Source of the DNA: Escherichia coli
GTDB taxonomy: Bacteria; Pseudomonadota; Gammaproteobacteria; Enterobacterales; Enterobacteriaceae
Length of the DNA stretch: 64,000 bases
NCBI RefSeq assembly: GCF_003334405.1
Contig: NZ_QOWM01000001.1
Strand: one strand, 5' to 3'
A model generated the notes under the pieces. The model was not told where the DNA came from. It worked only from the letters and a program-made list of their open reading frames with translations, and searched no databases. Below, piece by piece: positions 8,727 through 10,664 of the stretch. The number at the start of each line of letters is the position of its first letter. The stretch's first letter is position 1. The translations under genes were made by a program, and so were the position numbers.

Positions 8727-9071
8727 GTGACTTCATTACAACTCTCAATCGTCCATCGACTGCCGCAGAACTATCGCTGGTCTGCTGGTTTCGCAGGTTC
8801 GAAGGTTGAACCGATTCCGCAAAATGGACCGTGCGGTGACAACAGCCTGGTGGCGCTTAAATTGCTTAGCCCGGATGGTGATAATGCATGGTCGGTGATG
8901 TATAAACTAAGCCAGGCGTTAAGCGACATCGAAGTTCCATGTTCGGTGCTGGAGTGTGAAGGTGAGCCGTGCCTGTTTGTAAATCGCCAGGACGAGTTTG
9001 CTGCAACATGCCGATTGAAAAATTTTGGTGTGGCAATTGCCGAACCCTTTTCAAACTACAATCCTTTTTAA
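8727..9071 (+). CDS. yejG: Uncharacterised protein YejG
   Basis: 114-aa ORF; synteny. Confidence 0.85.
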
Positions 9072-9074
9072 GCG

Positions 9075-10664
9075 TCAGCTCAACGCCAGTAGCTGACGCG
9101 TATACTCCTGCTGCGGTGTGGCAAACACGCGCGCGCACGGTCCTTGTTCCACTACTTCCCCTTGTCGCAGTATGATAACCTGATGACATAACGCGCGGAC
9201 AACGTGCAAATCGTGGCTGATAAACAAATAGGCCAGTTGATGCTTTTGTTGCAATGATTTCAATAGCGTCAATATTTGCGCCTGTACCGTTTTGTCGAGT
9301 GATGATGTCGGTTCATCAAGTATGATCAGCGAGGGCTTAAGAATTAATGCCCTGGCAATCGCAATACGTTGTCGCTGACCACCAGAGAACTCCGCCGGAT
9401 AACGGTGGCGTGTTTCAGGATCTAATCCCACTTCATGCATCACGGCTATCACTTGTTGTTCGCGTTGTGCGGCAGAAAGCGTCGGCTGGTGAACCCGTAA
9501 GCCTTCCTCAATAATCTGCAAAACGTTGAGTCGTGGGTTGAGCGAGGAGTTTGGATCCTGAAATACCACCTGAATGCGATGACGAATAGGTAACAGCTGG
9601 CGGCGATTTAAATTTTGCAGTGGCTGACCGTCAAAGATGATGCTGCCCTGAGAATTAATCAGTCGCAGCAGCGCCAGTCCCGTCGTACTTTTCCCGGAAC
9701 CGGACTCGCCCACTAAACCCAGTGTTTCACCCGCTCGTAGCGTAAAACTGATGTTTTTCACCACCACATTATGATCCACAATGCGCTTCAAAATCCCTTT
9801 GCGAATGGGGAAGGCAACCTGAAGCTGTTCAACATCCAGCAACGTTGAGGCAGGTTCTGGCAACGGCACTGGATCGCCTGACGGTTCACTGTTGAGTAGC
9901 TTTTGTGTGTAAGGATGAGTGGGTGATGCAAATAGCGTAGCGGCGTAATTTTGCTCGACACAGCGACCGTTTTGCATTACCGCCACGCGGTGGGCCAGTT
10001 TTCTGACAATGCTGAGGTTATGAGTAATAAACAGCATGCCCATATTCAGCTCGCCTTGCAGTTCGCGCAACAGCTGTAAAATCTGCGCCTGGACAGAGAC
10101 GTCCAGTGCGGTGGTCGGTTCATCGGCAATTAATAATTCCGGTCGCGTTAACAGCGCCATCGCAATCATCACCCGCTGCCGTTCGCCGCCGGAGAGCTGA
10201 TGCGGATAATCTGTCAGCCGTTTTGCCGCCTGGCGGATACCAACGCGATCAAGGCAGTTAAGAATTTCGCCACGAGCCGCTTCCCGACGCATCCCGCGGT
10301 GGAGTGAAAGCACTTCATAAAGCTGTTTTTCCAGGGTATGCAATGGATTTAACGACACCATCGGTTCCTGAAAAATCATGGCGATCTTATTACCGCGTAC
10401 ACCGCGCAACGTTTGATCGCTGGCGTGAAGCAGCGATTCGCCATGAAAACGAATATCGCCGGAGAGATATTCAACCGGCGGGGAAGGGAGCAGGCGTAAA
10501 ATTGACAGCGCGGTAACGCTTTTGCCTGAACCTGACTCACCCACCAGCGCCAGCGTTTCGCCAGCCTCAATCTGTAGTGAAACATCATTGACTACTGTAC
10601 GTACGGTTTGCTGATGGCGAAAACCCACCGACAAATTTTCAATCGCTAACAGAGTTTGCGTCAT
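9075..10664 (-). CDS. yejF: ABC transporter ATP-binding protein YejF (two fused ATPase domains; peptide/microcin C uptake)
   Basis: Two Walker A motifs (GESGSGKS twice) and two LSGG signatures; start taken at MTQTLLAIENL. Confidence 0.92.
   Translation of the reverse strand: MTQTLLAIENLSVGFRHQQTVRTVVNDVSLQIEAGETLALVGESGSGKSVTALSILRLLPSPPVEYLSGDIRFHGESLLHASDQTLRGVRGNKIAMIFQEPMVSLNPLHTLEKQLYEVLSLHRGMRREAARGEILNCLDRVGIRQAAKRLTDYPHQLSGGERQRVMIAMALLTRPELLIADEPTTALDVSVQAQILQLLRELQGELNMGMLFITHNLSIVRKLAHRVAVMQNGRCVEQNYAATLFASPTHPYTQKLLNSEPSGDPVPLPEPASTLLDVEQLQVAFPIRKGILKRIVDHNVVVKNISFTLRAGETLGLVGESGSGKSTTGLALLRLINSQGSIIFDGQPLQNLNRRQLLPIRHRIQVVFQDPNSSLNPRLNVLQIIEEGLRVHQPTLSAAQREQQVIAVMHEVGLDPETRHRYPAEFSGGQRQRIAIARALILKPSLIILDEPTSSLDKTVQAQILTLLKSLQQKHQLAYLFISHDLHVVRALCHQVIILRQGEVVEQGPCARVFATPQQEYTRQLLALS

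Follow-up and report, generated by a model that had tools for sequence, protein, structure and literature searches.

What can a perfect hairpin do where two convergent genes leave no room between them? The stop codons of yejG and of yejF, the last gene of yejABEF, are 3 nt apart, and a stem-loop occupies exactly this junction in the 64,000-nt stretch of Escherichia coli DNA that we analyzed (the window, whose numbering is used throughout). A first-pass annotation had proposed that the hairpin serves both genes as a shared termination or RNA-stability structure. The stability half of that proposal fits a real and apparently selected structure, while the termination half is contradicted for yejG. 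The hairpin is probably an ordinary stabilizer of an mRNA end, not a terminator.

The features of the locus are collected in Table 1. As the first-pass annotation had described, the hairpin is real, with arms perfectly complementary over 9 bp; six of the nine stem pairs are G-C. That annotation had placed it 3 bp from the yejG stop; the hairpin starts 0 nt after the yejG TAA, and the 3 bp are the gap between the two stop codons. The stem was also said to lie inside the coding end of yejF, which is true of the right arm and of 3 nt of the left arm, all sense codons, but not of the rest of the left arm, which is made of the yejF stop codon and the spacer. The last eight yejF codons and the stop supply the bulk of the structure, and on the yejF-sense RNA the stop codon is located in the 3' arm. 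From 8700 to 9800 the window does not differ from the sequence of E. coli K-12 MG1655, in whose numbering (MG = 2286964 - window) the hairpin is at MG 2277865-2277892.

Table 1. Features at the yejG-yejF junction, in window coordinates.
Feature	Position	Strand	Description
yejG CDS	8727-9071	+	Stop TAA at 9069-9071, directly adjoining the hairpin
Hairpin, left arm GCGTCAGCT	9072-9080		Spacer (9072-9074), yejF stop (9075-9077; TGA, - strand) and last yejF codon (9078-9080; AGC, Ser)
Hairpin, loop of 10 nt	9081-9090		Three yejF codons (Leu-Ala-Leu) plus the third base of the following Leu codon; synonymous sites vary
Hairpin, right arm AGCTGACGC	9091-9099		- strand reads (AC)G CGT CAG CT(A), Thr-Arg-Gln-Leu of YejF
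yejF CDS	9075-10664	-	Last gene of yejABEF; stop TGA is the reverse complement of 9075-9077
C>G-rich (rut-like) stretch	8832-9031	- (yejF-sense)	Predicted Rho loading region; C/G 1.56-1.87, 92nd-97th percentile of the window
Second hairpin	9236-9244 / 9265-9273	+	-12 kcal/mol; then AUAUUUGC; 3' end at 9279, 6 nt past the hairpin
C>G-rich region	9640-9800	+ (yejG-sense)	Coincides with a published Rho-dependent region (window 9689)

As a 34-nt RNA, the hairpin has a fold energy of -16.6 kcal/mol (z = -4.3) when read from the + strand and -16.2 kcal/mol (z = -3.2) from the - strand; 200 shuffles gave no value as good. With 71 nt of sequence folded, the z-scores weaken to -2.2 and -0.4. No other local stem-loop on the yejF-sense strand is as strong over about 500 nt downstream of the stop region (-16.4, with the next best at -13.6). 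An alternative yejF-strand hairpin, CGUCAG-CUA-CUGGCG, was rejected for E. coli, where it folds at only -6.3 kcal/mol and the junction hairpin at -15.1, but it is the main fold in Siccibacter and in the locus L048. Perfect stems of at least 9 bp with a loop of 3-12 nt make up 30 entries at 15 loci in the window, and dinucleotide shuffles of the window gave 2.8 ± 2.1 such entries. Judged from sequence alone, one hairpin of this quality could be explained by chance. Its position and its conservation across genera argue against a chance origin.

The hairpin has a single copy in the window when up to 3 mismatches are allowed; the surrounding 1.3-kb region is found at a median of one place per genome and at most two. 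No Rfam covariance model matched over 9069-9102, even at E <= 10, and a known RNA family was rejected on this ground. REP elements are palindromic units whose 3'-UTR hairpins often lie between convergent genes and act as exonuclease barriers (PMC6061677 and a preprint abstract). The junction hairpin resembles them in being a palindromic hairpin between convergent genes; unlike them it is not repetitive, carries no REP consensus and is mostly intragenic. Because the element is unique, a REP or other repeat was rejected. A recoding signal for yejG was rejected as well: CCU UUU UAA followed by the hairpin does not make up a -1 slippery heptamer, and other genera, which have UUC UGA, do not conserve a +1 slip on UUU U.

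We fetched 80 loci via YejG from species-representative genomes, giving 81 sequences with the window. The 3-nt stop-to-stop gap is kept in 68 of the 81, and these 68, from Enterobacteriaceae species, form our gapless alignment. They come from Escherichia, Salmonella, Citrobacter, Klebsiella, Kluyvera, Kosakonia, Enterobacter, Leclercia and other genera, with a mean pairwise distance over yejF and yejG of 0.30. Standard pairing at the nine stem pairs is kept in 93.2% of cells on the + RNA and 90.6% on the - RNA, compared with 13-57% in slid controls. Watson-Crick pairing is 88% for the stem and 58-63% for short perfect control stems in the same coding regions, although about 5-7% of those control stems are equally well kept.

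Two stem pairs have changed on both sides. The pair 9072-9099, which couples an intergenic base with the third position of the Thr codon, is G-C, C-G (in the Klebsiella oxytoca group and Superficieibacter) or A-U (in Kosakonia). The pair 9075-9096 is U-A or C-G, coupling the yejF stop with the Arg codon: TGA goes with CGT and TAG with CGC. Both sides of a pair have changed in 22 cells; shuffles give 6.1 ± 2.1 and slid controls 0-7. On an NJ tree that leaves out the hairpin columns, parsimony counts about five independent double events and 21-27 events that break a pair. The three spacer bases and two 4-fold stem sites together took 38 parsimony changes, against about 81 for five random 4-fold sites of the same genes (P = 0.0017). 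The spacer and the synonymous stem sites thus evolve at about half the rate of 4-fold sites. The third position of the Gln CAG codon changed twice, which is not unusual for Gln codons in the yejF/yejG set.

Kluyvera has lost the outermost pair and gained two pairs at the loop end via a Leu-to-Ile change. Where the yejG stop sits 23 nt off (L048) or 5 nt off (L051), the hairpin stays at the yejF stop. Within Escherichia, variation is confined to loop positions, and across the set the loop sequence is conserved no more than coding constraints would give. With RNAalifold, the sole consensus structure on each strand is part of the stem helix. Wobble-type changes (17 on the + and 11 on the - strand) do not tell the selected RNA strand apart. 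As read from these alignments, the evidence that the stem is under selection is modest but consistent, and we consider such selection probable.

If the hairpin is selected, is it selected as a terminator? A terminator scan of 8400-9800 gave no matches. The stem is followed by GUAUACUCCU on the + strand and UUAAAAAGGA on the - strand, neither of which is a U-tract; a canonical T-run is absent on both sides of the hairpin, just as was first noted. For transcript ends we used the curated Term-seq 3'-end tables of Adams et al. 2021, which cover MG1655 in three conditions. In these, neither strand has a 3' end within MG 22778xx-22779xx. The same tables contain the canonical mepS terminator (hairpin at 16349-16372, 3' end at 16344), which validates our coordinate map. 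On the yejG strand they have a strong 3' end at MG 2277685 (-), window 9279, classed as antisense to yejF, and a Rho-dependent region at MG 2277275, window 9689 (Adams et al. 2021). The dominant yejG-strand end is therefore 180 nt beyond the junction hairpin, and polymerases and RNAs on this strand traverse it. The second hairpin, which lies just upstream of that end, is conserved only in Escherichia, with 49% Watson-Crick pairing across the set.

Other tables also have yejG-strand sites beyond the junction. A yejF-antisense 3' end at 10207 is given in another published table, and end-mapping tables list processing sites named "yejG UTR-3" at 9293, 9417 and 9790. The TRS table and the SRPS table of RNase processing sites (PMC10667835) have no entry at the junction hairpin, and the TERMITe supplements have none for the yejF/yejG locus. 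Two sigma-70 promoters of yejG have been validated by primer extension, and RNA of the yejG strand is abundant. As the hairpin is not the steady-state end on this abundant RNA, it is not the dominant exonuclease stop there. In the mapped conditions, the hairpin is neither a terminator nor the dominant stable end in the yejG direction. The first-pass annotation had named mapped Term-seq 3' ends as the check on its proposal; on the yejG strand they do not coincide with the hairpin, and with the end 180 nt past it and a Rho-dependent region near 9689, shared termination is contradicted for yejG.

The 3' UTR of yejG is thus antisense to yejF, and the overlap is documented. ExcludonFinder places yejF-yejG among 165 convergent excludons of MG1655, scoring the two transcripts as overlapping in 50% or more of 58 RNA-seq sets (PMC12288877). 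The pair is itself a listed member of this class, although the term covers the overlap of the transcripts, not the hairpin, and defines no role for a junction hairpin.

For the yejABEF direction, the reading that we favor, tentatively and at somewhat less than even confidence, is that the hairpin is a protective 3' stem-loop without a U-tract, on a transcript ended by Rho within antisense yejG. RNA polymerases from both sides would continue past the hairpin and transcribe the other gene in antisense, where the RNA is untranslated and Rho would end transcription. We infer that the yejABEF tail would then be trimmed back by the 3'-to-5' exonucleases PNPase and RNase II until the hairpin becomes the stable 3' end of the mRNA. 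Since the stop codon is within the 3' arm, the surviving yejABEF mRNA would retain it. For the yejG mRNA the same sequence would be only the first fold of a long 3' UTR, with the mature end further downstream at 9279.

This reading follows a known precedent. The steady-state 3' ends of Rho-dependent E. coli transcripts lie just past stable stem-loops without U-tracts, which are followed by sequence richer in C than in G; the site of Rho action is further on, and PNPase and RNase II trim the RNA to the stem-loop (Dar & Sorek 2018, PMC6061677). Like those stem-loops, the junction hairpin has a terminator-like energy, lacks a U-rich tail and closes the last gene of an operon. It also has C>G sequence downstream on the yejF strand, in a putative Rho loading stretch that starts about 40 nt beyond the hairpin and spans 40-240 nt. 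It differs from them in that, since just 3 nt separate the two genes, it is embedded in coding sequence and takes in the stop codon. A further difference is that on the opposite, yejG strand it is demonstrably not a 3' end. The 3'-end tables for MG1655 have no yejF-sense end near the hairpin, and the curated lists do not include yejABEF, possibly because its expression is low; the yejF strand is probably expressed too weakly to be judged by them. The yejABEF operon is under RydC control. Ribosomes that terminate have to open the hairpin, which would restrict protection to untranslated or post-termination mRNA.

Several observations count against a protective role. The sequence of the right arm is to a large extent dictated by invariant amino acids. 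Independent compensatory events are few, about 3-5, beside the breaking ones, and the third position of CAG is not slower than others of its kind. The wobble counts would also fit selection on either strand.

Another explanation is that the hairpin is an unselected by-product of the conserved C-terminal codons of YejF and of a short spacer that has diverged little. The codons for Thr-Arg-Gln-Leu and for Ser-stop contain a CAGCT/AGCTG palindrome, first or second codon positions of invariant residues account for five of the nine bases in the right arm, and CAG codons elsewhere in the gene often have a static third position. Some control stems are kept as well as this one, shuffled windows produce such hairpins, the Term-seq tables have no 3' end here, and five lineages carry 2-4 stem mismatches (L011, L015, L031, L066, L074). 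However, each of the two compensating pairs has a synonymous site on one side and a non-coding or stop-codon site on the other, and change in the spacer and at the 4-fold stem sites is about half as fast as in the neutral proxy. Pairing is restored structurally in Kluyvera, the hairpin is kept where the yejG stop is displaced, and the second E. coli hairpin in the same gene, at 9236-9273, is not conserved. We regard a by-product as unlikely, though it is the alternative that we take most seriously. Ju, Li and Liu reportedly described, in 2019, overlapping bidirectional terminators between convergent genes, and the junction hairpin might be the pause or roadblock of such a terminator, at which head-on and trailing collisions release the polymerases. 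In this class, uniform 3' ends flank the hairpin and termination is Rho-independent (Wang, Ju & Liu preprint, 10.1101/2022.10.23.513370). The conserved hairpin has the expected location, a single hairpin-encoding element is common to two convergent units, and both strands form the same hairpin, which is unlike an intrinsic terminator and matches the description of the class (10.1101/2022.10.23.513370). Yet yejG-strand RNA reads through for at least 180 nt, with a Rho region beyond and no uniform flanking ends, and the pair is scored as overlapping in at least half of the RNA-seq sets. Such read-through disfavors collisions, though these require both units to be active, and we think this mechanism decidedly improbable.

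A canonical intrinsic terminator of one or both genes has almost no probability in our view. The GC-rich 9-bp stem sits at the gene ends, as it would in a terminator; the U-rich tract of 7-8 nt, a match in the scan and a mapped 3' end are all absent, the loop is as long as 10 nt, and the mepS terminator was detected in the very tables that are silent here. An intrinsic terminator was therefore rejected. Canonical bidirectional intrinsic terminators, built as A-tract, hairpin and T-tract, also place one palindrome for both strands at a gene boundary, and the window has examples at 637-665 and 4119-4146. The junction hairpin differs from these in the same features and in having no A- or T-tract. 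The documented overlap of yejF and yejG transcripts would allow the hairpin a part in sense-antisense control. A palindrome necessarily gives complementary loops on both RNAs, and the complementary 10-nt loops could nucleate a duplex between the yejG 3' UTR and yejF mRNA that RNase III would cleave; yejG has its own validated promoters and abundant RNA. But the loop sequence is not conserved beyond coding constraints, and overlaps of more than 200 nt can pair without a nucleation hairpin, which leaves this role with a small probability. Smaller again is the chance that the hairpin is a dual-strand excludon element in which kissing 10-nt loops seed the duplex, expression of the small protein gene yejG tunes the amount of the Yej peptide / microcin C importer and the stem is selected on both RNAs. 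Finally, the perfect inverted repeat and wobble statistics that favor neither RNA strand clearly might point to a DNA-level function, as a palindrome bound by a dimeric protein or as a cruciform. The site lies at the 3' ends of two genes and not at a promoter, covariation preserves complementarity rather than a fixed half-site, with one pair occurring as G-C, C-G and A-T, and G-U-compatible changes are common. Arms of 9 bp with a 10-bp spacer are also poor cruciform formers, and we attach next to no weight to this possibility.

On our best reading, then, a known kind of structure, the 3' stem-loop without a U-tract, is found here at a convergent junction, squeezed into coding sequence. The gain in understanding is modest and specific to this locus, and it opens no general question. 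If the hairpin does set the 3' end of yejABEF, an mRNA-protecting stem-loop has been fitted into coding sequence and a stop codon where convergent genes leave 3 nt. The structure would then constrain synonymous sites, the choice of stop codon and even an amino acid, and synonymous mutations in the stem would provide a defined handle on expression of the Yej peptide / microcin C transporter.

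The published "primary" 3' end of bcr, at MG1655 coordinate 2278519 (window 8445, + strand), lies about 50 nt past the bcr stop and before the yejG start at 8727. This position fits separate transcription of yejG. The yejG-strand RNA ends at window 9279 (+). Its 3' UTR (9072-9279, +) measures 208 nt or more and runs antisense to the 3'-terminal part of yejF throughout. A second hairpin stands close to this end and is followed by AUAUUUGC. It does not vary within Escherichia, and in other genera it is only 49% Watson-Crick-paired. Both convergent transcripts also meet rut-like stretches, of which the one on the + strand overlies the published Rho-dependent region at MG1655 coordinate 2277275.

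Transcript-end features and palindromes in the window. Canonical palindrome: A-tract / hairpin / T-tract, bidirectional-type intrinsic terminator.
Feature	Position	Strand	Context
Canonical palindrome	637-665		
Canonical palindrome	4119-4146		
Rut-like (C>G-rich) stretch	8832-9031	-	inside antisense of yejG, met by yejF-direction transcript
Second hairpin	9236-9244 / 9265-9273	+	6 nt before RNA end at 9279
Rut-like (C>G-rich) stretch	9640-9800	+	inside antisense of yejF, met by yejG-direction transcript
Canonical palindrome	16349-16372		downstream of mepS

The canonical palindrome following mepS agrees with a Term-seq 3' end at MG1655 coordinate 2270620 (window 16344). Elsewhere in the window, a perfect 13-bp palindrome at 806-838, TCGCTAACTGATT-TATAATT-AATCAGTTAGCGA, has a TATAAT hexamer at its centre and could represent an operator that overlaps a promoter. 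Two more long palindromes, at 50025-50056 and 57477-57508, are GC-rich; one of them, GCATCCGGC...GCCGGATGC, looks REP-like, and the other is GCAGGGGGCGGC...GCCGCCCCCTGC.

We did not detect yejF downstream of yejG in the Intestinirhabdus alba locus (L035). There, an unrelated structure rich in GC (L035:1843-1930; 88 nt, about -39 kcal/mol) comes after yejG, and beyond it lies an opposite-strand ORF that, from its N-terminus, is probably MepS/Spr. In two Siccibacter loci (L061 and L063) and a further comparison locus, L048, the yejF stop region carries a different hairpin, built from Arg-Gln/Glu-Leu-Leu-Ala codons and pairing as CGCGAG/CUCGCG or CGCCAG-CUG-CUGGCG, that competes with or replaces the E. 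coli-type stem at the yejG-yejF junction. A hairpin of some kind is retained near the yejF stop in these three loci despite the changed pairing partners.
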